Shown here: piece after piece, positions 16,277 to 57,746 of the stretch | Numbering within the stretch: the stretch's first letter is position 1 | Layout of the letters: each line of letters opens with the position of its first letter | Origin: Escherichia phage JES2013 | Length of the DNA: 64,000 bases | Sequence record: KC690136 | Direction: 5' to 3' (one strand) | Notes under the pieces: model-generated | Databases searched by the model: none | What the model was told of the DNA's origin: nothing | Seen by the model: only the letters and a program-made list of their open reading frames with translations | Position numbers and translations under genes: made by a program

Positions 16277-16305
16277 TTGACTAATAGTATCAGATAATCT
16301 ATAAT
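16277..16305 (+). promoter_or_regulatory. Sigma70-like promoter TTGACT-N17-TATAAT
   Basis: Near-consensus hexamers about 40 nt upstream of 16307 ORF. Confidence 0.55.
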
Positions 16306-16306
16306 A

Positions 16307-16807
16307 ATGGCTCACTTTGTTAGTGAGCCAGAAATGGAGACAGATATGAGTAATGTTATGATTCCTAAAAAGACATTTATTTCAGTTACTTTGGATTTCC
16401 TATCTACCGTTCCCGGGTTTAACGTTCGCACACGAAACGGTCTCCGAGCTGCACTCTTTGCCGTAGGGTTTGATTTAAAAAGTATTGATGTTCTTCGTGG
16501 AAAAAACGTTCGATGCAAAAATAAGCCAACACATTATCGAAAGGCAGATGTATTTGCTGGTGTCATGCGTGCAGACTTTAGATACCCGCAAATGTATAAC
16601 GGTGTAGATATTTTAGATGTAGATAAAGCACCCGGTGAGGCAATGCTTGTTCAAGATCTTCCGTATGATATCCCTGTGGAGGATCGTGTTAATGTAAGAA
16701 AGTATACAAAACAATCTGAAAAGGCTGAAGATATTCATATTGTTGATGAACCTTTCAATTTTGAAGATCTGCATCGCCTGGAAAAATTATTCGGTATTGA
16801 AAGCTAA
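16307..16807 (+). CDS. Hypothetical protein
   Basis: 166-aa ORF downstream of promoter. Confidence 0.45.
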   Translation: MAHFVSEPEMETDMSNVMIPKKTFISVTLDFLSTVPGFNVRTRNGLRAALFAVGFDLKSIDVLRGKNVRCKNKPTHYRKADVFAGVMRADFRYPQMYNGVDILDVDKAPGEAMLVQDLPYDIPVEDRVNVRKYTKQSEKAEDIHIVDEPFNFEDLHRLEKLFGIES

Positions 16808-38702: not shown

Positions 38703-39541
38703 CACACAATTAGCTGCCCGGCTAAAGTGCTGGAAGCACCTATAACACATCTTTCAACTAAATTTCCCACCACAACAATCACTTACCTCCCATACATGAC
38801 TGTTTGCTTGTTTAGTGAGCAGTCATGCCTTGACATTCTTGCCTATCCTGATAAAATTAAGTTCTTCTCTTTTCTTTTACCGAGTAATTCGGGTTTTCTG
38901 TTCTCTTCGGTTTGAAGGGGTATGGAGATACACCTGAGTGAACAGGGTGAACAACCGAACATTTGGCTATGGCATTAGCATGGCGAAGCGGACGGGTGAC
39001 GAAAGAGGGGCCGGAGGACACCAGTCACTGCCATATGGTATATGGGTGATAACCTGAAGAGTCTGAATAAGTGTTTAAGTACCAGTCAGAGGAAAAGGTG
39101 AATGGTAGCCGAAGGGGGAGGGGGGTTTCTTGTATCTTTAATTTGTATATTATGTATACACTTGTAAACCAATCTCATTTGAATTTGTTTACCACACAAA
39201 GTGGATAGAGACAAATATTACCTATTAAACTTGAATTATTTATAGAAAATACCACAACACTACTTAAGTCTTTGATTTTACACACAAATCCTGCAGATAT
39301 TCACCCTCCATATTTAACATACTTGTAACATATTCCATACTCTACCTGCCCGATCAATTCACCCAACTACATCCCCATATTTTCCCTGTCTGTACTACCC
39401 CTGCCCCGCCGGGAGTCCCGTCATATCTGGCTTTCCAGCAAATATCACACCCACAAATATCATTGCCTGAAGAGGGTTTCGTCCCATAATACATGCCTTA
39501 CCTGAAGAGCGCTTCATATACCCCGTAAATTTTTTAATTGA

Positions 39542-39574
39542 CCCCCTCCCCGCCGCCGGAGGGGTCGGCTTTTC
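39542..39574 (+). terminator. Terminator-like hairpin CCCCTCC-ccgccgcc-GGAGGGG + TCGGCTTTT
   Basis: GC-rich stem followed by T tract in gene-free region. Confidence 0.5.
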
Positions 39575-40120
39575 CCACACAGACCTGAAGAGTCAGCCAG
39601 AAATATCTGAATGGACCCAATTCTGCCCTGTTATGAGCCGTAGCGACTGGAGTGCTGCCAGGCGGACGAAATGGGAATACTTCTCATTCTTATAACAATT
39701 CTCAAATATCGAGGCAGTGAGGCAAATTAATAGGTAAGGCCGTTCACATAGTGGCACAACATTTGCAGTCTATCTGATGTGGTTGAATGAGAATACCTAT
39801 CATTGTGAGAATAGTTATCATTACGGGCAATTTAACATAATACCCATTATGCGCACCACTGGCGATACATACAGGGATTGATAACATGAGTTACTGTTTA
39901 CGCATATAACAATTATATTTCTTATCATTTGTGTGGGATATAGTTAGCAGCCGATAGATTAGATATTGACCTGCGGACTTCTGACCGTCTAGACGTCTAA
40001 ACGCCCACACAACAAGGCTTATACATACATCGCTGAATGTAAACATGGCCGCAAAAATGCTACCATACAAGATTGTAAATTTTTCATGCAGCACTTGACA
40101 AAGAGGAGAAAAACTTGTCT

Positions 40121-40162
40121 GACACTTTAGACATACTGGTGACACAATATGACACTTTAGAC
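40121..40162. repeat. Direct repeat GACACTTTAGAC (two copies, 30 bp apart), followed by iterated TGTTTAC/TGTTCAC motifs to about 40360
   Basis: Exact 12-mers at 40121 and 40151; at least eight (A)CTGTTTAC-like motifs in the next 200 bp. Confidence 0.55.
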
Positions 40163-40449
40163 TTAATTGACATGCCTGACTGTTTACGCTGTCACTATTC
40201 GCGCTATTACTATTCACTCCCTTTACTGTTCACGCTCTTACTGTTTACATGCTTAATGGTTTACATGCTTAATAGACTGCATGTCTAATAGTTTACATAG
40301 CTAACTGTTCACATACTTATCATTTACATGATTGACTGTTTACACAGAGATGATAAGCCATGACATTCGTTTGCATGACAATAATTAACAAGATAACAAT
40401 TGACAAGCTAACAGCCAACAAGCTGACAATTAACTTGTTTACAATAGAT

Positions 40450-40615
40450 GACATAATATAAAAGCAGGGCAACTATTAGAAGATCTATAGTTGCCTTGCT
40501 TGTTATGTCATGATTAACTAAATACAAGGCAACTATGATCTGATTAATAGTTTGCAAACAAACTATCACGGGGGTGATGGTTACTGCTTTTATATTATGT
40601 CGCGACTCCGTCGCG
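40450..40615. repeat. Nested inverted repeats: 18-bp arms GACATAATATAAAAGCAG / CTGCTTTTATATTATGTC around palindrome GGCAACTAT-N10-ATAGTTGCC, plus CGCGAC-tcc-GTCGCG
   Basis: Arms at 40450-40467 and 40584-40601 are exact reverse complements; inner palindrome 40468-40495; GGCAACTAT also recurs at about 40517 and 40634. Confidence 0.6.
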
Positions 40616-41295
40616 CCATGCCATTCGTTTGCATAGTTGCCTTATTGTTACAGATAAAATAATTGTATTGTTAATTATTTCTTATCTTTCTATTAGTCAT
40701 CTAATGATTCCAGTCAATATAGTAATGTACAGTAAACATTAGACGACTAAAGATTTATCTGCTTATAATAACTTACCGTGACAATTTCGGACTGTTTACG
40801 AAAAATGTTGGCACCTAAGCTGATTTATGTTATGCAGTTTACACGAATAATTATTTTATGCAGGTATTGACTATTCCATTATTCTATGGTTGGAATAAAT
40901 ACTTAGCAGACTATAGAATGGTGAGCGTACGTAAATTCTGAGATCTGGCGGCTATAGTTATACTCGATTTTTCACGTAGAGCACGCTTTTGTGGTTATGT
41001 AAGTGTATGACTTATAAAGATTTTTAGTTGTTGACAAGACACTGAAGATATGCATCAGGTTAAATTTTGTGCAATAGCTGCATTACGTGCAATTTTGGAA
41101 GGAAAAACGGGTAAAAATAGCCCTGCTACCACACAATGAAAAGTTATGCAATAGTTATTTTACATGTATATTTGTACAGTGTGTGGGGTTGATGGCTCGT
41201 CAATTATTCCACTTGCCAGGTAGGGCCGTTTATGGTAGGGGGAAGATCAGACAAAAAGAAAGGGGCCTAAGCCCCTTGATAATTCAGTTAAAAAA

Positions 41296-41715
41296 TTATA
41301 ATGATTCGTATATTTCAAAAATCCGATTTGCCAGGTCGTTACGGTACCGGAATTTTTCATCACGTTTGATCATAAGATCTTTATAGCCGTACTCTTTAAG
41401 CACTTCATTAACTTTATGGCGGCACACCTTCATATTATCCTGAGCGTCACCAATAAACCTGTTGCTATGGTGCATGGCTTTAATTTCTTCTTCCAGGACC
41501 AGGGCAACTATGCGGACCGGATCAAGCTGATAGGCGGTAACATCAATGCGGCATTGTAAACGGCTTTTTACGTCTGCCACCGGATATACTGCAACCTCTT
41601 CCCCGTCAACATTGACAATAATTAGTTTACCATCGATTTCGAATCCTTTCGCCGCCGGACCGTGACAAAAAGCGTTATCAAAGCTATATGCCGGATTATT
41701 AGATTTAATGTTCAT
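41296..41715 (-). CDS. Hypothetical protein
   Basis: 139-aa ORF; last gene of leftward block. Confidence 0.5.
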   Translation of the reverse strand: MNIKSNNPAYSFDNAFCHGPAAKGFEIDGKLIIVNVDGEEVAVYPVADVKSRLQCRIDVTAYQLDPVRIVALVLEEEIKAMHHSNRFIGDAQDNMKVCRHKVNEVLKEYGYKDLMIKRDEKFRYRNDLANRIFEIYESL

Positions 41716-41860
41716 GGTGTTTTTACCTCTTAGTTAATTTTCTTACAACTTCCCTTTAAAAAAGAATATAGCAAAACTGCCGATCCTTGTCAATAAGGAT
41801 AGCATAATTTTTATGTGATCAAGGGGCTTTATTGCCCCCCTGACCATGTAACTTGTTGTA

Positions 41861-42124: not shown

Positions 42125-42184
42125 GATGTTTACCTCTTTATGCGGTTCTGATTAGTGGGCCTTTTGGCCCGTGTCATTATCTTA

Positions 42185-42457
42185 TTACTTATGGCGGCAG
42201 AATTCAAGCGTTTTTAATTGATAATCTTCCTCAGCCTGGAGTACGACCGCCTCGATCATTTCGTTGGCATTGTTAAAGCCATAACCTTTAGCGAAATCAT
42301 CCGCGCCACCTTCGTGATCATGTTCTGCGTTCATCGCTTCCACAAAATGGAATTCCAAATTGTTGAGGTAGGGGCTTGATGTTCCGTCCTCTTTTTCGAT
42401 GAGATCCCAAATAGCATTAAAACGTGATTCTACTTCTTGATTAATCCAGCTTGACAC
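42185..42457 (-). CDS. Hypothetical acidic protein
   Basis: 90-aa ORF. Confidence 0.5.
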   Translation of the reverse strand: MSSWINQEVESRFNAIWDLIEKEDGTSSPYLNNLEFHFVEAMNAEHDHEGGADDFAKGYGFNNANEMIEAVVLQAEEDYQLKTLEFCRHK

Positions 42458-42668
42458 AGTGTTTTCCTCTCTTCTGGTTGTTGTGTGGGCACTTTTGCCC
42501 CTTCAAGATAAATGTTACCCCACCCCATGGCAGATGTCAACGGTTTTTATAGTTCTTATATGACAGGCAGGCCCGGTGATTGTCTCCCCCCGTCGCCAGG
42601 TGCCTGCCGTGAAACAAGTATAACAAAAAACAGGACCATTGCAAGCCCTGTTTTGTAGTTTATAAATA

Positions 42669-43294: not shown

Positions 43295-43385
43295 TGTGTC
43301 CATCCTCTTTCTGCTACGTTTAAGGCGGCGGTAACCGCCTGTTTATGCTTTGTTGGTTAATTTTCGGGTATAGGTATAAATTAAA

Positions 43386-43715: not shown

Positions 43716-43792
43716 GGTGTTTATTCTCTTCTGTTAGTAACCTTATTCATGGGGCCGCTACCACAGCCCCAAGGTAAGGCAGCTATGTGCTT

Positions 43793-44038
43793 TTAGTGTT
43801 TCATTCCAACCATCGCGGCACGGATCGCCGTAGTGCTGTACTTGAAGCCGTCCGGGGTCTTATCTTGTCCGGTTAGCTCCAGAAAAAGCATCATATCCCG
43901 CGCCGCATCATTACGATTAGCATTGGCGTTAATAAAGCCTTGGGCCAACCGGTACAATGACTCATCGTTATTAATCCAAAGGCTTACATTCCAATGAGTT
44001 TTGTTTTTGTAACCGTTATAACCTTTATTGCTTTTCAT
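43793..44038 (-). CDS. Hypothetical protein
   Basis: 81-aa ORF. Confidence 0.45.
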   Translation of the reverse strand: MKSNKGYNGYKNKTHWNVSLWINNDESLYRLAQGFINANANRNDAARDMMLFLELTGQDKTPDGFKYSTTAIRAAMVGMKH

Positions 44039-44385
44039 GGTGTTTACCTCTTCTTTGTTCCAGGTGGCGGATCATTCTACCACCTTATGTATTATGCTTT
44101 GTTAGATGGTTGTTTGTTGTCAAACTATTTTACCGATAATCATCATATGCTTTATTTACCTGGCGAATATAACATTCAAAAGCCAAATCAATAGATTTAT
44201 ATTCACGGATATACTCACCATAGGAAACCACATACATTTCTATAGCTTCCTCATATGCGAGGAGAATAGAATCTAAGCCTACGATCTCAGTCTTTGCAAT
44301 AATAGCCATGATTTTTTATCCTCTTTGTGGTTGGTGGGGTTCGTTGCCCCCTTTGATTTATATATTACAGTCTTATATGGTCATG

Positions 44386-44619
44386 TCAACTATTTTCAAA
44401 AAATTTTTCTGCTGTGATATTCTTCCCGGTAGGGTTCGCTACTTTCAAAATTTTATCATGCACTGGACGCCCAAAAGAATAAGCGCCGTACACAGTAAAC
44501 CAATAATCGCCGTCAGGTTGTACTATTACTGCCGCATATGGTACGCCTTTTTCGTTTTTGCTGACAAAATAGATCACGTTGCCATTAATAGCCTCGGCGC
44601 GTTTAATTTGTTCCATCAT
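44386..44619 (-). CDS. Hypothetical protein
   Basis: 77-aa ORF. Confidence 0.45.
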   Translation of the reverse strand: MMEQIKRAEAINGNVIYFVSKNEKGVPYAAVIVQPDGDYWFTVYGAYSFGRPVHDKILKVANPTGKNITAEKFFENS

Positions 44620-44675
44620 GATGATTTGCCTCTCTTTATTTTCATAATTGGGGGGCCTTTTCGGCCCCGCCAGGT

Positions 44676-45494: not shown

Positions 45495-45534
45495 TCCTTG
45501 TTAACTGCGTGTTATTTTACCACGATTAAAATTT

Positions 45535-45578
45535 ACTTTACTGATGGCCCTGGCGTCAAGGCCATCTAAAAATAAATT
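45535..45578 (-). promoter_or_regulatory. Conserved 45-bp module, copy 1: palindrome GATGGCC-N10-GGCCATC enclosing TTGACG, then TAAATT
   Basis: Near-identical to copies at 49277-49321 and 49898-49942; abuts upstream stop codon; read on minus strand. Confidence 0.5.
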
Positions 45579-45778
45579 TACAGGCCTACAATCTCTTTGA
45601 TTCGTTTAACTGCTGCCTCAGCGCCTTGGGGGTAGAAATTATGGTAACCGATCACGCGAGTGATACTAATCGCAGTTTGATGATCTTCATAATAGCCCTT
45701 GAAGATTTCTTGACCGTCAATCAGCACGGCAATTTTTTCTTCTTTTTTGAAGTTAATAACGCGGATATTGTTGCTCAT
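45578..45778 (-). CDS. Hypothetical protein
   Basis: 66-aa ORF. Confidence 0.45.
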   Translation of the reverse strand: MSNNIRVINFKKEEKIAVLIDGQEIFKGYYEDHQTAISITRVIGYHNFYPQGAEAAVKRIKEIVGL

Positions 45779-45919
45779 TTTGTTTCTCCTTTCTGGTTTT
45801 TGTGTTGGTGGGGATTAGCTCCCCGTTGATTATTATTATCCATATTTCGGACCGGATTGCAACACCCCGGAAGAAAAATTTTTTGAAAAAGTTAGGCCCC
45901 CAGGGATCGGGGGCCGTTA

Positions 45920-46694: not shown

Positions 46695-47075
46695 TTAAAA
46701 ATTATCGCCGTAAATCTTTCCGCTTTCTGCCCACACCACCACGCGGGGCATACTATCCCACACGTCTTGTTTTAGATTGAGCGCGTGCAATTCTTCGGTG
46801 GTGCCCATACCAGGCACGGGCTGATTGTATACTGCAAAACGACCACCTGCATAATCATAGGCCAGGGTTAAATCACACTGAATCATCTTTTTGATCATGG
46901 CGTTGAGCATAGCGTTAGCCGCATACTGGTCACGTTTTAAAGGCAACTCTTTGATTAGTTTGCGATAGTTTTCAATGTGATCGCACACTGTTTCACGTGG
47001 AAGATCTTTCATATCCTCGCGAAAGGTAACCAGGTTAAACATAACGGTGTCAATAGCTTTAGTAGTGTTTTTCAT
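46695..47075 (-). CDS. Hypothetical protein
   Basis: 126-aa ORF. Confidence 0.5.
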   Translation of the reverse strand: MKNTTKAIDTVMFNLVTFREDMKDLPRETVCDHIENYRKLIKELPLKRDQYAANAMLNAMIKKMIQCDLTLAYDYAGGRFAVYNQPVPGMGTTEELHALNLKQDVWDSMPRVVVWAESGKIYGDNF

Positions 47076-47166
47076 AATGTTTTCCTCTTTGTTTTGTGTG
47101 GGGCAAACGTCTTGCCCCCCCTTGAGTTTTAATATAGCAAGTTTTTAGATTATTGCAACACTTTAT

Positions 47167-47790
47167 TTATGAAAAACTCATCTCTCCATATTCATCCACA
47201 TCAAACCGCCAATCATTGGCCTCAATAAGGCCGATCAGGTTTTCGGTAGTGAACTGTTCTAGATAGGCCTCCTCCAGGTCTACGTAAACCTTGCGGGATA
47301 GCTCCCGTACCGTCTCGGTGATCAGCTCTTCCAGGTCTTCCACTTTGTTTTCTTGTTTGGCGGTCAGATCTAGCCAGGTGGTATCAATGTATCCGCTTAC
47401 AGTGTTTTCATGGCTGTAATGGCTGTACTTGTCGCGTTCAATACTGGCTGATAACTCGCCATCGTGCATTGTGCCAAACAAGTGACGAATTGATCGGAAC
47501 TTGGTCAGGGCCTTTACTTTACGCAAGAATTTTTCTAAATCCACGTTTTCAGCACTGATTGACGCGCCGTCACCCTGGCACCAAAAGCCGGACCAATGTA
47601 CATCGGTATCTTCAAGGCCGTACTCTGGAAAAACTTGCTCTTTATAATATTCAATTACACTTTCTGCGAAAAAATCCTCTCCGCTGTGTTCTTCTCTTTC
47701 GCGGACCATTTCAATAGCTTTTTCTTTTTGTTCGTCGGTCAGCACGTCGAAAGATAAATTGCAACCTGTGGTAATGTTAACGGTGGTCAT
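47167..47790 (-). CDS. Hypothetical acidic protein
   Basis: 207-aa ORF; no recognised motif. Confidence 0.5.
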   Translation of the reverse strand: MTTVNITTGCNLSFDVLTDEQKEKAIEMVREREEHSGEDFFAESVIEYYKEQVFPEYGLEDTDVHWSGFWCQGDGASISAENVDLEKFLRKVKALTKFRSIRHLFGTMHDGELSASIERDKYSHYSHENTVSGYIDTTWLDLTAKQENKVEDLEELITETVRELSRKVYVDLEEAYLEQFTTENLIGLIEANDWRFDVDEYGEMSFS

Positions 47791-47819
47791 GATATTTTCT
47801 CCTGTTTTCTTTGTTAGTG

Positions 47820-47838
47820 GCGGGAAGTTTTCCCGCCT
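47820..47838 (-). promoter_or_regulatory. 5'-UTR stem-loop GGCGGGAA-aac-TTCCCGCC between promoter and RBS
   Basis: Perfect 8-bp stem; same architecture upstream of 49664 and 50339 genes. Confidence 0.5.
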
Positions 47839-47847
47839 GTGTTTTTA

Positions 47848-47875
47848 ATTATACTTATTGAGATTTACTTGTCAA
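47848..47875 (-). promoter_or_regulatory. Sigma70-like promoter TTGACA-N16-TATAAT (minus strand)
   Basis: Consensus hexamers on the reverse complement, upstream of 47790 start. Confidence 0.5.
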
Positions 47876-48125
47876 CACTATTTTTTAAATTATTGTGGCG
47901 CAAAATGTTTAAAATCTCTTCAACGTCATCAACACGGCGGCAATTTTTAAACGCTACCAATTGCCCCATGATTTTAATCACTGGGCGGCCTTGCCAGTGC
48001 CCCTGGAGAAAGCGCGCCTTGACTTTATCAGTGGAACTATCACGCCACCAAACGGCCTTGTTATTGCAGTAGTAAAAATTATTCAGGACAATATCAACTT
48101 TATCAAAATTTTTTAATTTACGCAT
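47865..48125 (-). CDS. Hypothetical protein
   Basis: 86-aa ORF. Confidence 0.45.
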   Translation of the reverse strand: MRKLKNFDKVDIVLNNFYYCNNKAVWWRDSSTDKVKARFLQGHWQGRPVIKIMGQLVAFKNCRRVDDVEEILNILRHNNLKNSVDK

Positions 48126-48370
48126 AGTGTTTACTCCTTCCTTCTTGCTTTGATGTGGTTAGTATATCCGGACTATTCCAAGGTGTCAAGCTTTAAATAA
48201 AATCACTGTCAATGATATTTTTAACACCATAAAACGGCCCTGGGTGATGTTTTCAGGCTAAGAAAGGGGATTGCATAGGTAGGGGCTTTTGTGGCGTTTG
48301 TGGGGCCAACCAGGGGCGCTATTCGTAGGATAGAAATAAAAAGCCCCGCACAATGGCGGGGCGTTGGTTG

Positions 48371-48568
48371 TTATTTGTCTTTATGGCGGTATCGTTCCGC
48401 TTGTCGTTCACGTTCCAAAAGTAGGCCCGGCAATTTACGATCATAATGATTCCGCCAGATCTTCCCAAATCTTTTTGGCTTATTCAGTTTATTGTTGCGC
48501 TGGCGGCGTTCCGGCAACTCTTCGGAATCATGAGATCGCTTTACAATTTTCTCAAAATTAATCTTCAT
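48371..48568 (-). CDS. Hypothetical basic protein
   Basis: 65-aa Arg/Lys-rich ORF. Confidence 0.4.
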   Translation of the reverse strand: MKINFEKIVKRSHDSEELPERRQRNNKLNKPKRFGKIWRNHYDRKLPGLLLERERQAERYRHKDK

Positions 48569-48930
48569 ATATTCCCACCCTTGCTAACTTCAATATTGGC
48601 CTGAATCGCCCGGATACGGCGTTTTATAACCTCCTGATCCGTGCAATCGTATCCCCAAAAGTCTACAATTTTCGCGCCGCCAGCTTTTAAGCGGTATAAT
48701 GTTTCTTGCATTTTGTAAGCTGGGATCGGTCGCGGTGTTACCTGGTCGCCTTTTTCATCCTTGTACTTGATTATGTAGTCCTCGTTGTCGTTGAATACCC
48801 AAAAAGGGTACTCTGTAAGGGCGTTGCTTTCTTTTTCGTTTTTAGATTGGATCTTGTTTACAATTAAAGCCGTAGCAATAGCGCCAATAATAAAACTAGC
48901 CCCGCTGATCATGTTACTTTCTCCTTTCAT
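48565..48930 (-). CDS. Membrane-anchored protein
   Basis: N-terminal TM ISGASFIIGAIATALIV. Confidence 0.45.
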   Translation of the reverse strand: MKGESNMISGASFIIGAIATALIVNKIQSKNEKESNALTEYPFWVFNDNEDYIIKYKDEKGDQVTPRPIPAYKMQETLYRLKAGGAKIVDFWGYDCTDQEVIKRRIRAIQANIEVSKGGNI

Positions 48931-48987
48931 TGTGTTGATAAACTATCTTTATAGATGGCCCTGTTACCAGGACCACCGAAAAAATAA

Positions 48988-49233
48988 CTATTTCACAATG
49001 CCTACAAAACAGATCCCGCCTTCACCTATATAGGCAATATCGGTAATTTTATAATTTGTCAAGATCCGCGTGTTCAGATCATTAATAAAATCGGTCATCG
49101 CGTTGGTGTAGTTGTCTTCCGTGTCTAAGGCATAATCCCAGGTGTAAACCTTTTTACGTCCGAAGCCTTTTACCATGATACGGGCGCTTTTGGTGTTGGT
49201 AGGGGCATAATATTTGGTGATTAGTGCTGCCAT
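48988..49233 (-). CDS. Hypothetical protein
   Basis: 81-aa ORF; GGAG SD. Confidence 0.45.
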   Translation of the reverse strand: MAALITKYYAPTNTKSARIMVKGFGRKKVYTWDYALDTEDNYTNAMTDFINDLNTRILTNYKITDIAYIGEGGICFVGIVK

Positions 49234-49276
49234 GGTTTTAACTCCTCTGAATTAGTTCAGTGTTAACAGTATAAAG

Positions 49277-49321
49277 TTTACTTTATTGATGGCCCTGAAG
49301 TCAAGGCCATCTAAAAATAAA
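49277..49321 (-). promoter_or_regulatory. Conserved 45-bp module, copy 2: GATGGCC-N10-GGCCATC around TTGACT, then TAAACT
   Basis: Same element as 45535-45578; abuts stop of 49323..49664. Confidence 0.5.
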
Positions 49322-49322
49322 C

Positions 49323-49664
49323 TTACTCGTTTTCTTCCAGCTCCGCAAGCTCTTCTTTTGCTTCTTCTAACTCTGTCTGTAGTTCCTGGTATTCTTCATC
49401 GTCCTCAATATCCAGGCTGTCGATGTAGTCGCTAAATCCGCAGCGGTAAGCGATAGGATCTAGCTCCTTGAGGATACGCGACGGAAGAAAAGAAATGTTT
49501 CCGATCATAATTTCGCCGTAGATCTCGTCTAACCATTCATCATAGTTTTCGTCGTACTTGTCCTCGTCGATTTCAAAGTTATCGATCTTGTTCTCAAGGT
49601 CTGCGATCTGTTTTTTCAGCGCGGCGATCTGCATAGCTTTTTCTGCGGCGGTCATAGTAGTCAT
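49323..49664 (-). CDS. Hypothetical acidic coiled-coil protein
   Basis: 113-aa ORF; preceded by promoter TTGACA-N16-TATACT and hairpin GGGAA-aac-TTCCC. Confidence 0.5.
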   Translation of the reverse strand: MTTMTAAEKAMQIAALKKQIADLENKIDNFEIDEDKYDENYDEWLDEIYGEIMIGNISFLPSRILKELDPIAYRCGFSDYIDSLDIEDDEEYQELQTELEEAKEELAELEENE

Positions 49665-49743
49665 GGTGTTTTCTCCTTTTGTGTGCTCTGGGAAGTTTTC
49701 CCGTTTACGTGTTTAAGTATAGCGATCTAAGTTAGTTTGTCAA

Positions 49744-49863
49744 TTAAAAATTTAAGAAAAATTTTGCAAAACTGTTAGCGCTACTCATTAACATTTGCGC
49801 CAGGATGTAACCAATGATGCAAACGATAATAGTTACCTTTGTGTGCTGGCGTGTAGTACTCAT
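49744..49863 (-). CDS. Small membrane peptide (39 aa)
   Basis: sORF MSTTRQHTKVTIIVCIIGYILAQMLMSSANSFAKFFLNF; SD GAAAGGGGGG. Confidence 0.3.
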   Translation of the reverse strand: MSTTRQHTKVTIIVCIIGYILAQMLMSSANSFAKFFLNF

Positions 49864-49897
49864 CTTTAAGCCCCCCTTTCCGCTCAACTGTGGTTAG

Positions 49898-49942
49898 TTT
49901 ACTTTATTGATGGCCCTGGAGTCAAGGCCATCTAAAAATAAA
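49898..49942 (-). promoter_or_regulatory. Conserved 45-bp module, copy 3: GATGGCC-N10-GGCCATC around TTGACT, then TAAACT
   Basis: Same element; abuts stop of 49944..50339. Confidence 0.5.
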
Positions 49943-49943
49943 C

Positions 49944-50339
49944 TCAGTACGTTTTCAGTACTTTCCCGTCCAACCTGTCTAACTGAATCTCAATAGCTGC
50001 AGAAAACCTATTGTAAACCACATCGCCCAAGGAGTCCAGCCAATCTATAACGTTATACACCTGCTCTTTATTCTTGCAAGTCCGGATCCGTTTCATTACG
50101 TAAGACGGATCAATATTAGTACTCCCGTTGTTGTGGTCATGCGCCTGGCCTGCTGCACTGGTTATAGATTTTACAACCACCTGAAAGGGCTTTAAGGTGC
50201 CTTTTGCGTTCATCTCACGCGCTTTTGCGGCGCGGTTGTTATATGTTACACAACGGCGGCAAATGTTGAATAAATGCATGTCAATAATTTTTTCATCGTT
50301 TGCCAGTTCGTTCATGATGCGGCGTACGTTCTTATTCAT
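49944..50339 (-). CDS. Hypothetical protein
   Basis: 131-aa ORF; upstream promoter TTGACA-N16-TAAACT and hairpin GGCGGGA-aaca-TCCCGCC. Confidence 0.5.
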   Translation of the reverse strand: MNKNVRRIMNELANDEKIIDMHLFNICRRCVTYNNRAAKAREMNAKGTLKPFQVVVKSITSAAGQAHDHNNGSTNIDPSYVMKRIRTCKNKEQVYNVIDWLDSLGDVVYNRFSAAIEIQLDRLDGKVLKTY

Positions 50340-50422
50340 AGCTTTTCCTCTGTGTTGGCGGGATGTTTCCCGCCTTTTGTGTCTAGTTTACTTGAATTTT
50401 GCAGCGTGTCAATAATTTTTTT

Positions 50423-50821
50423 TTATTCGTGGGCACATGTTACAATGTGCTTTTTATAGCCCAGGTGGGCAGCAAGTGCCGCCAAAAACTCATCTTCATA
50501 GATCCAGCCGTTGGCAGTGATCCCCATAGCATTTAATGCGCTCTCAAGTGCTGCGTTAGCTTTATCATAACCGTGACCGCTCGCCTTGCCGCCAGTATAA
50601 CCGTACTTATTGTTCTTGTTGTCGTGTATCCAAAAAACGCAGTAGTTAGTGTTACCGCTGGCGGCGGCATAGTACCGGATCTCCGCTACTTCGTGCAAAT
50701 TATTATCATCGTCCAGGCCAACCAGATTATAAGCCTTGTAAAATCCACGATCACGGCGGCAGTTCTTGACATCAGAAAAAGAGAAGTCGGCATTGTCAAA
50801 ATTAAAGGTTGTGGTTTTCAT
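50423..50821 (-). CDS. Hypothetical protein
   Basis: 132-aa ORF; upstream TTGACA-N17-TATACT. Confidence 0.5.
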   Translation of the reverse strand: MKTTTFNFDNADFSFSDVKNCRRDRGFYKAYNLVGLDDDNNLHEVAEIRYYAAASGNTNYCVFWIHDNKNNKYGYTGGKASGHGYDKANAALESALNAMGITANGWIYEDEFLAALAAHLGYKKHIVTCAHE

Positions 50822-50885
50822 GATTTTATCCTCTTAGTGTCTTTTGTGATTTCAGTATATTTTGTGTCGGGGCGTATGTCAATAC

Positions 50886-51083
50886 TTATTTTTTATTAAA
50901 CCAGTGATTGATCTGACCTTTTGTCAGGGCGCAACGATTAAGCTGTTGCAGGGTATAGCTATGACCGCGACGAAATTTATAAAGGCCTTGCCCGTTGTTG
51001 ATGGTTACATCCACCAGGCAAACCACTTGATCGGTGACCACCTGGCGAGTGTTGCGACGTACTTTGATTCCGTATGCGTTCAT
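50886..51083 (-). CDS. Hypothetical protein
   Basis: 65-aa ORF. Confidence 0.4.
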   Translation of the reverse strand: MNAYGIKVRRNTRQVVTDQVVCLVDVTINNGQGLYKFRRGHSYTLQQLNRCALTKGQINHWFNKK

Positions 51084-51323: not shown

Positions 51324-51590
51324 TTTTGTACCTCCCCTTCAATTGTTACCTATCCTATAGCATAGGCCCACCAGGTTTACAAGCCTTCATTCTCTCCTGC
51401 CTGGTCAGTTAGGTCCTGCCAGGCTGGCCCCGCCAGGTTGCAGCGGTTAGCGCATCAGGTTAGAAAAATTTTTTGAAAAGTGTTGACAGCGGCCCCGCCA
51501 GGTGGCACAATATACCTATCGAAAGGACGGCAGGCACCGGTGACGGGGGAGGCAACCACCGGGGATGGACGCTGCATAAAATGAGAACGG

Positions 51591-51718: not shown

Positions 51719-51735
51719 GAGAATGATTATCATTC
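51719..51735. promoter_or_regulatory. Fur-box-like 7-1-7 palindrome GAGAATGATTATCATTC (module 2)
   Basis: GAATGAT-T-ATCATTC perfect inverted repeat; contains AATGATTATCATT, an exact 13-mer of the Fur consensus reverse complement. Confidence 0.3.
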
Positions 51736-51864
51736 AAAATTCTAAATGAGAACTCCTCGCATTTAATAAATTTAATTAGCATGCTAATTACCCTCCGTAA
51801 CAATTTCCTATAAAACAGTATCCCATAAAATATTTCCATATAGAAATTTTAAAAATCCATTTCT

Positions 51865-52027
51865 GAAAACGAAAAATCGATTTCGTCCCCAAAAATTTCA
51901 GGTCGAGATCCGGAACGATTTCCAGAAAATCCGATTTAGAAAACGAAAAACAGATCGAGTACTGAGAAATTTATCGAGAAAAATTTTCAGAAAATTCAAT
52001 CTTTGAAACGAAAAACAGATCGAGTAC
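51865..52027. repeat. Direct repeats GAAA(A)CGAAAAACAGATCGAGTAC (two near-exact copies plus one degenerate)
   Basis: Copies at 51939-51962 and 52005-52027; degenerate copy 51865-51880; AAATCCATTTTAG also repeated nearby. Confidence 0.55.
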
Positions 52028-52339
52028 CTGGAAAGCTGCACTGCAACTTCAAGATAGTGGTTAGATTATTACCATAAAAGGTCAAGGGTAAGTGGAGGAA
52101 GTTCTAGTAGAAGGATGTGAGCATGTGTGGGAAATCTATAATGGTGGCCTGGAATATGGTGCAAACGATAGGATGAGTTATTCAGCTTGTCGCGCCTACT
52201 CTGAAAAATCCATTTTAGTTTTCGATCCATTTTCTGATTTTCTAAGAATTTTAAAATATCCAGCCCGGTGAAATATCAAAAGGAGGAAATCCATTTTAGA
52301 AATCCCCCTTATACTTGATATGCCAGGAATTTTCAAGTA

Positions 52340-53719: not shown

Positions 53720-53914
53720 TTACAGGTTACTCCAGTATACTCGGCATTTACATTTCGGGCAATGAGGCTCTTTTATGTAATAACCATCAGTCTTTGGAAC
53801 ACTTTTTGGTGCAGTTTTAAGATTGTACCGAGTAAAACACCGGAAGCAGGTTACCTCTCCAACCTGTTGATCGTTTATCCACTCGCCAGAGTAAAGCTCT
53901 CTCTTGTTTCTCAT
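53720..53914 (-). CDS. Small zinc-ribbon-like protein
   Basis: CFRCF...CPKCKC pattern; start refined to ATG after GGGAGAG. Confidence 0.45.
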   Translation of the reverse strand: MRNKRELYSGEWINDQQVGEVTCFRCFTRYNLKTAPKSVPKTDGYYIKEPHCPKCKCRVYWSNL

Positions 53915-53940
53915 AATTCTCTCCCAAATCCTCTGCAATC

Positions 53941-54164: not shown

Positions 54165-54662
54165 TCAACACTTTTTGTACTCCACCACGATAATATTCAT
54201 ATCAAAAGTGGCAAGGTTAATAACGTCCTCTACGTGCTCCCACTTCAAACCGCCTATGCCGCACCCGATCTTAGGGATGTAGAATGGTAAAGTCGATCCA
54301 CTGAATACCTCATTGACTAGCTCAAAGCCTTTCAGGATTGAGAAATATTCAGCATTAGGTCCTGGGTAGAACTGAGTATACAGATTGATTCCGTAGACAA
54401 TACCTCTCGGAGATAAGTGCTCCCATCGGGAGAACGCACCCAGTTTACTTAGGCAACCGTGTCTGGTCTCTTTGTCAGCTGCCAATGCTTGAGGGAACTC
54501 ACGGGCAATCTGTTTTGCTATCCCCTTGCCCATTGTGTGGAAGCAGTTACAACCGTGGATCAGGTGACCAGCACCGCTCTTAAAAAGGGAGATTAAATCT
54601 CCCTCTACAGTATCAATAATCACGGTATGCCAGCTCCTCTTCCGCAATTTCAAAAAACTCAT
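54165..54662 (-). CDS. Macro domain protein (ADP-ribose binding/processing)
   Basis: VIIDTVEGDL...GHLIHGCNCFHTMGKGIAKQI and IPKIGCGIGGL match macro-domain motifs; start uncertain. Confidence 0.65.
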   Translation of the reverse strand: MSFLKLRKRSWHTVIIDTVEGDLISLFKSGAGHLIHGCNCFHTMGKGIAKQIAREFPQALAADKETRHGCLSKLGAFSRWEHLSPRGIVYGINLYTQFYPGPNAEYFSILKGFELVNEVFSGSTLPFYIPKIGCGIGGLKWEHVEDVINLATFDMNIIVVEYKKC

Positions 54663-55817: not shown

Positions 55818-55879
55818 TTTTCAGATCTCCTTATACAAAAATGCCCCACCCTTTCGGGCAGGGCTATGTCAGTTAGGTG

Positions 55880-56503
55880 CTAAAAGTATTCATAGAGGTA
55901 TCCATCGGGAGCTGGAATTTTTTCATGAATGTAGTAATCAACACATATTCCGGTTTCTCTTCTACAAGAATTGTGGGATACCCATTCTTTAAGAACGTTG
56001 CCATTCATGTCCAGCCTCCTTACATTTTTACACCGTCTACCGCTGGTGCTTCTATGCAACAGAATATCCTCCGTCTGCTTGTCTTTATTTTCTCCCCAGG
56101 TCGTTAAACGGATATTATCAAAAGAGTACCCTTTGAAATCATCTATCCTGTCACAAGAAGGCTTTTTCCTTTTGTCGTATCCGCTGGCTACCCACTGGTC
56201 ATACAACTCTTTGTAACCGTTCAGGTATAGCCACTCCTTAAACTCTTTTTTGGTGTAAGTCGGAGGAGGGTGACCTCTTTGCTTGCTGTTGCACTTTTGA
56301 GCCTTGTACAACACGCGTATTACACCTTTTTCTGAAGAGTCGTGGGAAAACTGGTCAGCCTCCCTACTGGCCTTCTTACAACACTCTTTGCACTTATTAA
56401 GATGACCGTCAGACATCTTTGGGTGTTTGTAGAACTCGGAGAGGTTTTTCACCTCTCCGCACTTGATGCATCTCTTACAATGCGTAGATTCTACTTTTGC
56501 CAT
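55880..56503 (-). CDS. Putative free-standing homing endonuclease (HNH-like)
   Basis: N-terminal CKRCIKCG...CKEC; [23 protein letters not shown] resembles HNH_3-type motif; overlaps 3' end of SSB-like gene. Confidence 0.45.
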
Positions 56504-57746
56504 ATTGCAGACCTACCGGAGCGAAAGGAATGTCATCACAGAAGTCATACTGTGCTGGATTCTGATCCATCGGGTCATCTTCCTCATCATTTACAGGAGG
56601 AGCGTCTACAGTGTTTTGCTGTGGAGCTGTTTCCTGTTTGGCAGCCTGAGGTTCTTGATGGTCAGTTGACCCAGCACCGTTCTTGATCCAATCGTACAAC
56701 GGCTCAGCCAGATTAGTCAAGACATCTTTTGCTTCTGCAGTAATTGCCGCTGCAAAATCATCAACTTTCGTTTTCTTGTCAATACGGCGACAAGCGTTCA
56801 ACACCGCATTACCGACACTGGCACCTACTTCATCTTCAGTTCGGTTGGTGGCTTGAGCATACTCTTTCTTAAGCTCAATGGTGACTACGTGCAGTGTTTT
56901 AGCCACGCCCAGTGGGTCGTCTACCTTAAACCCGCGATCCAGGATGATCTGCAACGCATTGATGCTATGCCCCGTTTCCACACCGATAGGGTCGTAAGAG
57001 GATTTACGCTTGCCACCAGAGCCTTGAGTGCCGTTCTCTGCCTTAGGAGGATAGGCCTTGAAACCACTGATAATGTTTCCGGTGTCTTTGTCAACAATGG
57101 CTGCAACACGACCACCTACCACCAGGTCTTTAAGCTGCTCATCAGTTACAACCATAGCACCTTCGCCAATCTTGTGGTCATTAACAGTAACCACGTTGCC
57201 AACAATCTGAGTCACATCACCATAGATGCGTAAAACGTCCTGATTGGCATTCTGCTGAGGTTTCTGCTTCTGGCCTTGTGATTGTGCACCTTGTTGCTGT
57301 TTTTGCTGCTGAGTCGCTGCTGGAGCCTCTCCTGCACCCAGCTTAACCATCTTAGCCAGTGAGCCCTTGTAATAGGTCTTACCGTTATGCTCGTTTGCCT
57401 TCAAAGGGATATTTACGATCCATCCTGGCGTTACGGTTTCCCACTTGTCATCAATCTTAACAGAGACAGAGTCTTGATGACCTGGTTTAAGCAGCTTATC
57501 ACCCATGCTGATCCAGACTTCTTCACCACCTTGAAGCAGGTTATCAGAGGAATCCAGTTCAGAAATCAGTAAAGAGATGGTGTGGCTGGATTCAATTTTC
57601 TTACCTTGCCACACAGTGGTTTTAATACCTGTTGTAGGATCAGCACCTTTGATAGGCTTGATGCTAACACGTTTAATCATGCCGTGAGCCAGTAAAACAG
57701 TTTCACGCGGATTCATTGGGTTAGCGAATTGTTGAATAACGCTCAT
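56475..57746 (-). CDS. Putative single-stranded DNA-binding protein
   Basis: Gln-rich linker [20 protein letters not shown]; acidic DEEDDP...YDFCDDIPF like the SSB C-terminal DDDIPF tip; neighbourhood of DNA polymerase. Confidence 0.4.

Follow-up and report, generated by a model that had tools for sequence, protein, structure and literature searches.

A sigma-70 promoter and a G/C-rich hairpin near the predicted transcript start recur together in the leftward early block of an rV5-like phage

The window analyzed here, i.e., the whole 64,000-nt stretch of Escherichia phage JES2013 (sequence record KC690136), belongs to an rV5-like Vequintavirus, and its leftward early block is a hyperplastic ORFan region. 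We tested 10 products of the block; all 10 match PHROGs, exclusively ones of unknown function, and no Pfam family was found above the cut-off. Perfect GC-rich hairpins are in excess in this region, with 22 cases between 41.0 and 51.2 kb compared to 5.7 +/- 2.4 in dinucleotide shuffles. They are split between 2.7 kb of intergenic DNA (15 hairpins) and 7.5 kb of coding DNA (7 hairpins), and this mostly intergenic excess bears out the first-pass annotation, which had placed further GC hairpins in other gaps of the block. Searches of Rfam 15 gave no covariance-model matches at the gathering score in the whole window, and only three matches, all at chance level (E 0.16-0.4), within 41.0-51.5 kb. 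Start-site, 3'-end and half-life data for rV5-like phages were not found in the literature search. At least seven leftward sigma-70 promoters lie between 42.5 and 50.4 kb, each with a hairpin downstream that has its G-rich arm first and its C-rich arm second.

The first three of these cassettes precede the genes that start at 50339, 49664 and 47790, and all of their elements are on the minus strand, including the TTGACA-N16-TATAAT/TATACT/TAAACT promoters that had been recognized upstream of these genes on the first pass. Promoter 1 (TTGACA-N16-TAAACT, 50385-50412), which is P194 in Table S4 of the rV5 paper and has 80% AT in the 20 nt before its -35 hexamer, is followed by the hairpin GGCGGGA-aaca-TCCCGCC (GGCGGGAaacaTCCCGCC, 50357-50374) and then by aacacaGAGGAaaagctATG. 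The folding energy of this hairpin is -14.3 kcal/mol (z -5.09; none of 200 shuffles is equally stable); among the relatives, its loop is TGT, ACA or AACA and the stem is kept. Promoter 2 (TTGACA-N16-TATACT, 49716-49743), whose -35 hexamer is abutted by the upstream stop codon, leads to the hairpin GGGAA-aac-TTCCC (GGGAAaacTTCCC, 49690-49702), which is identical in 14 of 17 sequences. The latter is a weak relative of the GGCGGGAA type and not a perfect copy, because it has 5 bp, folds at -5.5 kcal/mol (z -1.40) and is matched in stability by 18 of 200 shuffles. Promoter 3 (TTGACA-N16-TATAAT, 47848-47875), P185 in the rV5 paper, agrees with the consensus at 12 of 12 positions and carries the upstream stop codon within its spacer; its hairpin, GGCGGGAA-aac-TTCCCGCC (GGCGGGAAaacTTCCCGCC, 47819-47837), has a folding energy of -14.6 kcal/mol (z -5.33; again, none of 200 shuffles is equally stable). 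The first-pass annotation had described perfect hairpins at all three genes and had suggested folding energies as a check. The outer two stand, the one at 50357-50374 exactly and the one at 47819-47837 shifted by one base, whereas the middle one, placed at about 49697-49710, proved to be the GGGAA/TTCCC structure at 49690-49702, weak on folding where the others have z values of about -5.

Four more cassettes are found on the same, minus strand. Cassette 4 (47075-47158) consists of TTGCAA-N16-TATATT, the hairpin GGGGCAA-gacgt-TTGCCCC (47100-47118, z -2.28), acacaaaacaaaGAGGA and the ATG at 47075; the loop is inverted to ACGTC in the relatives L014, L018 and L044. Cassette 5 (45778-45862) is preceded by a true terminator (45895-45915) and comprises TTGCAA-N16-GATAAT, the hairpin GGGGA-gctaa-TCCCC (45810-45824, z -3.08), an A/C-rich leader, AGGAG and the ATG at 45778. 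Cassette 6 (44309-44389) has TTGACA-N16-TAATAT, a hairpin that is weakened here to GGGG/CCCC (44336-44351, z -1.80) and reads GGGGC-aacaa-GCCCC in relatives, GAGGA and the ATG at 44309. Cassette 7 (42457-42540) has TTGACA-N17-TAACAT, the hairpin GGGCA-aaag-TGCCC (42487-42500, z -1.34), an A/C-rich leader, GAGGA and the GTG at 42457.

Each cassette is arranged in the following order: an AT-rich tract, a sigma-70 promoter, the hairpin, an A/C-rich and almost T-free linker, the Shine-Dalgarno (SD) sequence and the start codon. The seven promoters match the consensus at 9-12 of 12 positions, AT makes up 75-95% of the 20 nt upstream of the promoter in six of the cassettes, and the stop codons of upstream genes abut or overlap the -35 hexamers. 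From 50.4 to 42.5 kb, the distance between the end of the -10 hexamer and the first paired base is 10, 13, 10, 12, 10, 10 and 11 nt, whereas the distance between the hairpin and the SD is variable, from 6 to 19 nt; this combination links the hairpin to the point where transcription starts, and not to translation. With the start site predicted 7-8 nt after the -10 hexamer, the hairpin begins at roughly +3 to +5 of the predicted RNA and leaves a 5' overhang of 3-5 nt, and the leader outside the hairpin is predicted to be unstructured in each cassette. All 11 class-A stems, i.e., those of the seven cassettes and of four further sites, are G-first and C-second, with folding energies from -5.5 to -14.6 kcal/mol. 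The stems differ from site to site (GGCGGGAA, GGGAA, GGGGCAA, GGGGA, GGGGC, GGGCA), while shape, G/C content and polarity are common to them, which argues for a structure and not for one protein-binding sequence. It should be noted that about half of the promoters of the block have no hairpin (48189, 50882, 51165, 53715, 54168 and 41793), and that A/C richness is a general property of the leaders of the block, hairpin-less ones included.

Three or four similar hairpins of the minus strand have no convincing promoter. The hairpin GGGCC-aaaa-GGCCC (42157-42170), 5' of the SD of gene 42124, is preceded only by a weak candidate, TTGAAT-N17-TAAGAT, 8 nt upstream. The hairpin AGGCGGTTACCGCCGCCT (43323-43340) precedes the SD of gene 43303, lacks a clear promoter and occurs in L014 as an exact reverse complement. 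An imperfect hairpin, AGGTGGTAGA-atga-TCCGCCACCT (44062-44085), lies 5' of the SD of gene 44038, at a site where TTGACA and CATAAT are separated by 21 nt, versus 17 nt in L014. The hairpin GGGGCC-gaaaa-GGCCCC (44652-44668) is located directly 3' of a stop codon and has neither a promoter nor a T tract. A second class of palindromes, class B, encloses the -35 hexamer, again on the minus strand. Its first copy is an extended palindrome of about 47 nt (49897-49943), GTTTATTTTTAG-ATGGCC-ttgactccag-GGCCAT-CAATAAAGTAAAC, with TTGACT (-35) in the loop and TAAACT (-10) in the 3' arm, in a gap that folds at -30.7 kcal/mol; further copies are found at 49276-49322 and 45531-45577, and a diverged variant, GGTGGTCCTG-gtaa-CAGGGCCATC, at 48954-48977.

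We searched 20 relatives, of which up to 18 were compared per element, and calculated diversity for 10 elements with 9-18 relatives aligned to each. The -35 hexamers are invariant (diversity 0.000), followed by the SD (0.024), the two stem arms (0.057 and 0.046) and the loops (0.191), so that loops are about fourfold more variable than stems. Changes of loop size and exact loop inversions leave the stems intact, and nearly every variant folds at -5.5 kcal/mol or better. The comparison of hairpin conservation to coding divergence, which the earlier annotation had proposed, showed about the same low variation in stems and in coding sequence; relative to the flanking leader (0.065-0.078), the stem arms (0.05) have no clear excess of conservation. 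Among the aligned relatives, no compensatory double substitutions were found within the genus, and single-step disruptions of the stem showed no excess of G.U (5-6 variants) over A.C (6-7 variants); thus, the variants do not single out the sense RNA as the target of selection. The hairpin is kept at each site, and conservation by itself leaves action at the RNA level to be inferred.

The architecture recurs in other genera. In the Avunavirus Av-05, GGGGAGA/TCTCCCC is located 12 nt after TATTAT, and GACGGGGG/TCCCCGTC is found as well; these stems are unrelated to those described above. In the Av-05 ortholog of the 207-aa gene, a hairpin is retained 11 nt past the -10 hexamer; the ortholog of gene 47075 in the same phage has the promoter and no hairpin. 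The GGCGGGAA stem occurs with the same layout in phage 4MG (Seunavirus) and in a Schickermooser-like Phapecoctavirus. Moreover, GGCGGGAA/TTCCCGCC is common to the sites at 47819 and 50357, in part to 49690, and to a replacement module in HdK5 and L002.

The class-A hairpins share with intrinsic terminators a G/C-rich stem-loop of 5-8 bp with a 3-5 nt loop. They differ in the missing sense T tract, with 0-1 T in the 8 nt 3' of the stem and a single T in the 94 nt that the stem-to-SD linkers of the seven cassettes comprise in total, and in their location downstream, not upstream, of a promoter. Canonical terminators of the block, with 5-7 T, lie upstream of promoters (55864, 48362, 45915, 45129, 46685, 42654 and 41277). 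For example, the gap from 45.92 to 45.78 kb contains, in this order, a terminator, a promoter, a hairpin and an SD, and the class-A hairpin follows the terminator by 60 nt. The conclusion that class-A hairpins are not intrinsic terminators is well supported by these sequence features. The absence of a T tract had been correctly noted on the first pass, together with the suggestion of elements of mRNA stability or processing and not terminators; the second half of this suggestion is well supported by the location downstream of the promoter and the A/C-rich 3' side, and what fits the first half is position, as a role in mRNA stability or processing would agree with the fixed site about 3-5 nt after the predicted start.

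The closest kind of element known so far is the promoter-early stem-loop (PeSL) cassette; PeSLs have been described in the T4-like phages RB49 and phi1, and later in PST and nt-1 (Arbiol et al. 2010, PMC2839356; Comeau et al. 2014, PMC4122927), in five subclasses with the stem-loop mostly between -35 and -10 or over -10. The likeness includes the AT-rich tract that starts from the upstream stop codon, the early promoter with a strong sigma-70 consensus, the polyG-then-polyC stem-loop, the A/C-rich leader with SD and start codon, the concentration in a hyperplastic region where small ORFans lie, and indels between close relatives, some of which end inside the elements. The position of the stem-loop gives a mixed picture: class B, with its -35 hexamer in the loop, corresponds to a described PeSL subclass, and the class-A hairpins of the cassettes lie 3' of the promoter. 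The differences are that the phage considered here is a member of Vequintavirinae, not of Straboviridae, that no alignable sequence is shared with the RB49 PeSLs examined, and that the stem-loop in the examined stretch of RB49 overlaps the -10 hexamer or the spacer and extends to about the start site, whereas the seven elements here lie wholly downstream, 10-13 nt after -10, in their predicted own mRNA. The cassettes are, as judged from sequence, best described as an analogue and not a homologue of PeSLs; no paper that links PeSLs to rV5-like phages was found in the searched literature. The first-pass annotation had recorded neither whole PeSL-type cassettes nor the class-B palindromes around the -35 hexamer, nor had it noted that some of the genes gained or lost between relatives have their junctions inside the elements.

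Most likely, and we would say so with moderate confidence, the cassettes are PeSL-like regulatory units in which the hairpin acts on the RNA as a 5'-terminal clamp and insulator. The stem-loop would be the first structure transcribed in the cassette's own mRNA, the U-free stretch after the stem would keep it from terminating that mRNA, and the clamped 5' end would impede the decay by RppH and RNase E that depends on this end. On read-through RNA from upstream, the same hairpin would be a barrier to 3' exonucleases and an insulator between cassettes. The start site, action on the RNA and the effect on stability are what we infer here. A paired 5' end is known to slow RNase E (review PMC3997798, citing Emory 1992; Bouvet and Belasco 1992). 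T4 Srd is a stimulator of RNase E activity against host mRNA (PMC4980113), and a homolog of it has been reported in rV5 (gp11). With stimulation of RNase E of the Srd type, the phage would gain by shielding its own early mRNAs. Stabilization by a 5' hairpin, attributed to Emory et al. 1992, reportedly requires no more than about 2-4 unpaired nt; thus, the predicted overhang of 3-5 nt places the clamp spacing at the edge of this limit. For the RB49 PeSLs examined, a 5' clamp is impossible, since the stem-loop overlaps the -10 hexamer or the spacer.

The 5' UTR hairpins of ompA and papA are similar in that they are small, not critical in sequence, close to the 5' end (predicted here) and have an unstructured leader with an SD on their 3' side; transcripts of T7 gene 10 (phi10) also carry a 5' stem-loop stabilizer. 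As in the ompA type, structure and not sequence is what is kept in the block: unlike stems occupy the same position and loops vary, even to the point of inversion. The differences are that the start sites here are predicted, with an overhang at the limit of protection, and that many promoters of one phage block are involved instead of a single long-lived mRNA. If the clamp reading is correct, rV5-like phages would possess a compact, portable unit, built from promoter, 5' clamp, U-free leader and SD, that determines both output and lifetime for dozens of early ORFan mRNAs. Vequintaviruses are in wide use against E. coli O157 and are also present in the BASEL collection. Public annotations of these hairpins as terminators would then need correcting, the PeSL idea would reach beyond T4-like phages in a variant with a transcribed stem-loop, and natural parts would become available for tuning mRNA stability in E. 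coli. No new principle would be involved, because 5' hairpin stabilizers and promoter/stem-loop cassettes are already known.

The authors of the PeSL studies proposed that the stem-loop attenuates or terminates upstream transcription; applied here, the hairpin would matter only on read-through RNA, by stopping or pausing RNA polymerase or by leaving a protected 3' end, with the cassette's own promoter dominating. Terminator-like activity was reported for one RB49/phi1 PeSL stem-loop, which reduced lacZ expression about as much as rrnB T1 (PMC2839356), and mini-circles were shown as well; stem-loops of RB49 lie within the promoter and can, therefore, act only on read-through RNA or on DNA. In the block, the upstream stop codon and the promoter overlap and no terminator separates them, so RNA that reads through would reach the hairpin 35-45 nt past the stop, and the four intergenic hairpins without a clear promoter fit this function. 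Annotators of HdK5 and Schickermooser call the homologous hairpins putative terminators, and those of Murica do the same for class-B palindromes. However, the hairpins have no U tract, the block uses canonical T-tract terminators elsewhere, in one case just before a class-A hairpin (45.9 kb), efficient termination would abort the cassette's own transcripts too, and a pure read-through role leaves the fixed spacing after the -10 hexamer unexplained. We consider attenuation unlikely.

A function at the DNA level appears rather doubtful. Perfect palindromes of 18-19 bp at +4 to +22 would serve either as operators at which a dimeric phage or host protein shuts off the early promoters, or as cruciform or recombination sites, with cassette shuffling as the main consequence. 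The recurrence of GGCGGGAA/TTCCCGCC over sites and genera (4MG, Schickermooser-like) with a free center resembles a half-site pattern, the lack of a strand-specific wobble signal fits a DNA element, and so do the class-B palindromes around the -35 hexamer and the inversion of loops, and even of whole hairpins, between relatives. Against one sequence-specific protein stand at least six unrelated stems at the same position, with only G/C richness, polarity and position in common; such a protein would not explain the hairpins, and no candidate regulator was identified. As for recombination, we inspected three mosaic junctions, located in hairpins (41276|41821), in the SD/start region (43732|44024) and at the AT-rich promoter edge (53721|53941). 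The first involves a cassette (41277-41820) between two GGGGC/GCCCC hairpins where relatives have a single hybrid hairpin, which resembles recombination between PeSLs. The other two lie outside hairpins; thus, recombination appears to be a side effect of conserved regulatory sequence of any kind.

A long shot is that the hairpins are part of a mark of self versus non-self RNA, enabling escape from Srd-driven RNase E, and at the same time serve as DNA joints for swaps of ORFan cassettes among phages of the rV5/phi92 supergroup. RNase E prefers U-containing sites, and an early mRNA that starts with a G/C clamp and continues U-free would escape it; swapping at DNA joints would explain the identical GGCGGGAA...TTCCCGCC stem in three genera. 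Termination of antisense, plus-strand transcription, which would shield the early promoters from converging RNA polymerases, is very improbable: a simple scan flags terminator-like sites on the plus strand at 47819-47837 (TGTGTTTTTA), 50357-50374 (TTTTGTGTCT), 44336-44350 (CTTTGATTTA) and 43323-43340, as the sense transcript begins with an A-rich stretch that resembles a T-rich tail on the opposite strand, but only two of seven tails are convincing (47819 and 50357), the plus strand has no credible genes and no strong promoters between 41 and 56 kb, the terminal repeat of phage Gotham (the physical genome end) maps at about 39.8-40.25 kb, between the block and the convergent plus-strand unit, and the T-rich tail is probably a by-product, since all leaders of the block are A/C-rich. 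Among 116 sites with the exact motif GGCGGGAA-N3-TTCCCGCC in phage contigs of IMG/VR, 80 have a T tract 3' of it, and these are presumably ordinary terminators.

The three promoters that the first-pass annotation had placed in the leftward block are present exactly as claimed: TTGACA-N16-TATAAT at 47875-47848 (gene start 47790), TTGACA-N16-TATACT at 49743-49716 (gene start 49664) and TTGACA-N16-TAAACT at 50412-50385 (gene start 50339). As for the perfect hairpins said to follow them, GGCGGGAaacaTCCCGCC is at 50357-50374 as described, GGCGGGAAaacTTCCCGCC is present at 47819-47837 instead of 47820-47838, and the middle one exists, although at 49690-49702 and not at 49697-49710, and is merely GGGAAaacTTCCC. 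The predicted folding energy is -14.6 kcal/mol for GGCGGGAAaacTTCCCGCC (z = -5.33) and -14.3 kcal/mol for GGCGGGAaacaTCCCGCC (z = -5.09), with none of 200 shuffles as stable in either case; for GGGAAaacTTCCC it is -5.5 kcal/mol (z = -1.40). The motif CGGGAA-N3-TTCCCG, with one mismatch allowed, occurs twice in the window versus 0.07 occurrences expected.

Reading all gaps of the block, we found four further promoters with the same order of parts, at 47158 (stem GGGGCAA/TTGCCCC), 45862 (GGGGA/TCCCC), 44389 (GGGGC/GCCCC) and 42540 (GGGCA/TGCCC). In the seven cassettes, pairing begins 10, 13, 10, 12, 10, 10 and 11 nt after the -10 hexamer ends, the G-rich arm is first in every stem (class-A hairpins), and the stem is separated from the Shine-Dalgarno sequence (SD) by 6 to 19 nt. 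These linkers sum to 94 nt, namely 59 A, 27 C, 7 G and a single T, whereas T makes up 28% of the whole strand; outside the hairpin, the leader is predicted to be unstructured. About half of the block promoters have short leaders without a hairpin (48189, 50882, 51165, 53715, 54168 and 41793), and four look-alike hairpins lie 5' of an SD without a convincing promoter (42157-42170, 43323-43340, 44062-44085 and 44652-44668). The suggestion that GC-rich hairpins occupy many other gaps was borne out: there are 22 perfect ones in 41.0-51.2 kb versus 5.7 +/- 2.4 in shuffles, a fourfold excess, and their density per kb is six times higher between genes than inside genes.

It should be noted that at 44086-44127 the spacing of the TTGACA and CATAAT hexamers is 21 nt in the window, which is probably too long for promoter activity, and 17 nt in the relative A142, via a 4-nt deletion; either decay of this promoter in the window or its repair in A142 may account for the difference. 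Outside the block, the hairpins at the promoters 16277-16330 (+ strand) and 59471-59410 (- strand) begin 0-3 nt past the -10 hexamer and straddle the start site, an arrangement that differs from class A; near 59.4 kb, the SD is within the 3' arm.

Bases 47000-51000 matched 121 phage records; nearly all belong to Escherichia myoviruses in the genus Vequintavirus, with identities of 90-96% (rV5, FFH2, Murica, HdK5 and others), and E. coli O157 typing phage 4 is 100% identical over part of this region. An insertion of ~1.5 kb in relatives within 47.1-50.5 kb was absent on direct alignment of the loci and is taken to be an artefact of joining BLAST pieces. Seventeen "Campylobacter phage" records (MG065644, MG065661, MG065662 and others) share 91-96% identity with this coliphage block; since GenBank flags these records UNVERIFIED, the attribution to a Campylobacter host looks wrong. 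The block itself is a run of small genes on the - strand, from ~41 to 56 kb. For ten of its gene products tested, PHROGs of unknown function were the sole matches, and none of the ten reached the Pfam cut-off. Neither tRNA nor tmRNA genes were found in the window, and the Rfam search of the window gave no match at the gathering score and, in 41.0-51.5 kb, only chance-level matches at E up to 1. Just left of the block maps the annotated 459-bp terminal repeat of Gotham (~39792-40250), and the ~2.5 kb between the rightward and leftward gene blocks (~38800-41250), within which the physical end of the genome is annotated for Gotham, are nearly free of ORFs.

To assess conservation, 20 Vequintavirus loci were searched, and each of 10 elements was aligned with its 9-18 matching loci. 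Mean pairwise diversity per site was 0.000 in the -35 hexamer, 0.024 in the SD, 0.047 in the -10 hexamer, 0.057 and 0.046 in the two stem arms, 0.065-0.078 in linkers, 0.070 in coding sequence, 0.106 in the promoter spacer and 0.191 in loops. Judged from these alignments, the promoters are clearly under selection. The hairpin is kept at each site, nearly all variants folding at -5.5 kcal/mol or better, and stem conservation is not markedly above that of the flanks. Comparison of 50357-50374, 47100-47118 and 43323-43340 with the loci of four relatives (L003, L014, L018 and L044) revealed inversions: the loop at 50357 is TGT or ACA, the loop at 47100 is GACGT or ACGTC, and the whole hairpin 43323-43340 is found as its exact reverse complement in a close relative. 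Exact inversion of loops with the stems kept shows that the hairpin centre is free to vary and that flip events occur at these short palindromes. Among unique variants of the hairpins at 47100-47118 and 45810-45824 within the genus, there were no compensatory double changes, the divergence being too low to be informative. Across the aligned hairpins, single-step stem variants comprised ~5-6 G.U versus ~6-7 A.C pairs. Taken as a whole, the comparison with relatives thus demonstrates a constrained structure and does not tell whether its RNA or its DNA form is selected.

The layout extends beyond the genus. Avunavirus Av-05 has it with other stems: in one element, TTGACA-N17-TATTAT is followed after 12 nt by GGGGAGA/TCTCCCC and then by actaac...SD, and a second element has the stem GACGGGGG/TCCCCGTC. 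In 4MG (Seunavirus) and in a Schickermooser-like Phapecoctavirus, a promoter is followed after 9-11 nt by an identical GGCGGGAA stem and then by an SD; the leader behind this stem is A/C-rich in 4MG and contains Ts in the Schickermooser-like copy. In the Av-05 ortholog of gene 47075, the promoter lacks a hairpin. The ortholog of a 207-aa gene keeps the hairpin in Av-05, 11 nt past the -10 hexamer, and the homolog in the jumbo phage PBECO4 has a promoter without one; distant homologs at 25-32% identity, from IMG/VR and metagenomes, are found in unrelated surroundings of high GC content and gave no information. At 56503-55880 in the window, a 207-aa gene follows the end of the upstream gene and precedes the terminator 55843-55864; its region (55886-56523) is missing in most relatives, and the DrSchubert counterpart is annotated as a putative homing endonuclease.

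We conclude that the rV5-like phages have a real and so far undescribed conserved regulatory cassette, the kind of which is already known: it is a variant of PeSL-like cassettes. The closest described kind is the promoter-early stem-loop (PeSL), known from the T4-like phages RB49 and phi1, which combines an AT-rich tract and a sigma-70 promoter with a Gn-loop-Cn stem-loop and an SD (PMC2839356). The elements listed in the rV5 genome paper include 20 terminators and the promoters of the window's block (P168, P174, P185, P192, P194 and others); the leader hairpins are missing there. Our literature search found no paper connecting PeSLs with rV5-like phages, nor did it find a transcriptome or mapped start sites for any of the latter. 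In the RB49 stretch that we examined directly, the -10 hexamer or the spacer lies inside the stem-loop, whose end is approximately at the start site; the stem-loop is therefore outside the element's own mRNA, whereas in the seven rV5-like elements the hairpin is in their own (predicted) mRNA. PeSLs sit in ORFan-rich hyperplastic regions, where recombination between them shuffles genes (PMC2839356). In the window, the cassette 41277-41820 has a GGGGC/GCCCC hairpin on each side, and three relatives have one hybrid hairpin instead; Gotham and ECO111 5-P have a 291-bp deletion (43733-44023) that fuses two AGAAGAG..TAAACACCATGAAA ribosome-site (SD/start) regions; and a 219-bp deletion (53722-53940) joins two TAA(AA)GATTG promoter edges. 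Such gene-sized presence/absence ending in regulatory repeats, seen at these three junctions, resembles modular shuffling of the PeSL type.

The best explanation of the hairpin is a role at the RNA level, as a clamp of the 5' end, a reading to which we give even weight for and against. The hairpin would be the first structure in the cassette's own transcript (from the predicted start site), as near to the start as is compatible with an intact promoter; the lack of U in the sequence that follows would prevent termination of that transcript. Decay that depends on the 5' end would be impeded by the hairpin, which on read-through RNA would act as a 3' barrier. Protection by 5' stem-loops is established for E. 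coli (PMC3997798). According to the rV5 paper, the phage encodes a homolog of T4 Srd, and T4 Srd stimulates RNase E on host mRNA (PMC4980113); as speculation, this homolog could be a motive for protecting early phage mRNA. The clamp has weak points: protection is borderline with the predicted overhang of 3-5 nt, half of the promoters come without a hairpin, and the RNA-specific evolutionary signal is missing. Attenuation of upstream transcription, the view of the PeSL authors, appears unlikely here. In the gap 45.92-45.78 kb, a terminator comes first, then a promoter, a class-A hairpin and the SD; with a true terminator already in place, a class-A hairpin for halting upstream transcription would be redundant. 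The hairpins had been considered unlikely terminators for want of a T tract, and we agree: only 0-1 T is found in the 8 nt past each class-A stem, whereas the canonical terminators of the block (55864, 48362, 45915, 45129, 46685, 42654 and 41277) have 5-7 T and, unlike class A, precede promoters. A DNA operator or recombination site, doubtful and slightly less probable than attenuation, would be in line with the GGCGGGAA stem being common to several places. Exact GGCGGGAA-N3-TTCCCGCC was found at 116 sites in IMG/VR contigs, with a T tract at 80 of them; thus, the stem itself is ordinary, and its placement and the following sequence are what is special here. An antisense terminator is a weak candidate. 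Antitermination of the lambda nut (boxA + boxB) or HK022 put type was rejected, the leaders being 45-57 nt long with one small hairpin and variable loops; no boxA-like motif was noticed in them by eye.

A second class of elements (class B) encloses the -35 hexamer in an extended palindrome, with near-identical 47-nt copies at 49897-49943, 49276-49322 and 45531-45577 and a diverged fourth copy at 48954-48977. They begin at the upstream stop codon; the loop holds the -35 hexamer TTGACT, and the 3' arm the -10 hexamer TAAACT. The Murica record labels these palindromes terminators; T runs are 5' and A runs 3' of the stem, the reverse of a terminator. They could be regulated promoters, RNase III-type processing sites on read-through RNA, or both; an RNase III site was rejected for class A, with stems of 5-8 bp being too short, and is possible at the class-B palindromes (~20 bp).

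Two other gaps stand out. The 335-nt gene-free gap 51734-52068 has strong predicted structure and three imperfect direct repeats of ~62 nt (65-74 nt spacing, 61-77% identity, especially 51834-52034) that look iteron-like, and the G/C-rich, highly structured gap 5' of gene 51323 contains three copies of GGCCCCGCCAGG-like 17-mers (51412-51507). Regions of Seunavirus EC152 and Justusliebigvirus PATM, reached via the macro-domain gene, are tightly packed operons with few gaps. The macro-domain protein encoded at 54165-54623 is 69% identical to one of RB49, from which PeSLs were described; this likeness is a hint that the variable regions of both lineages have exchanged genes.
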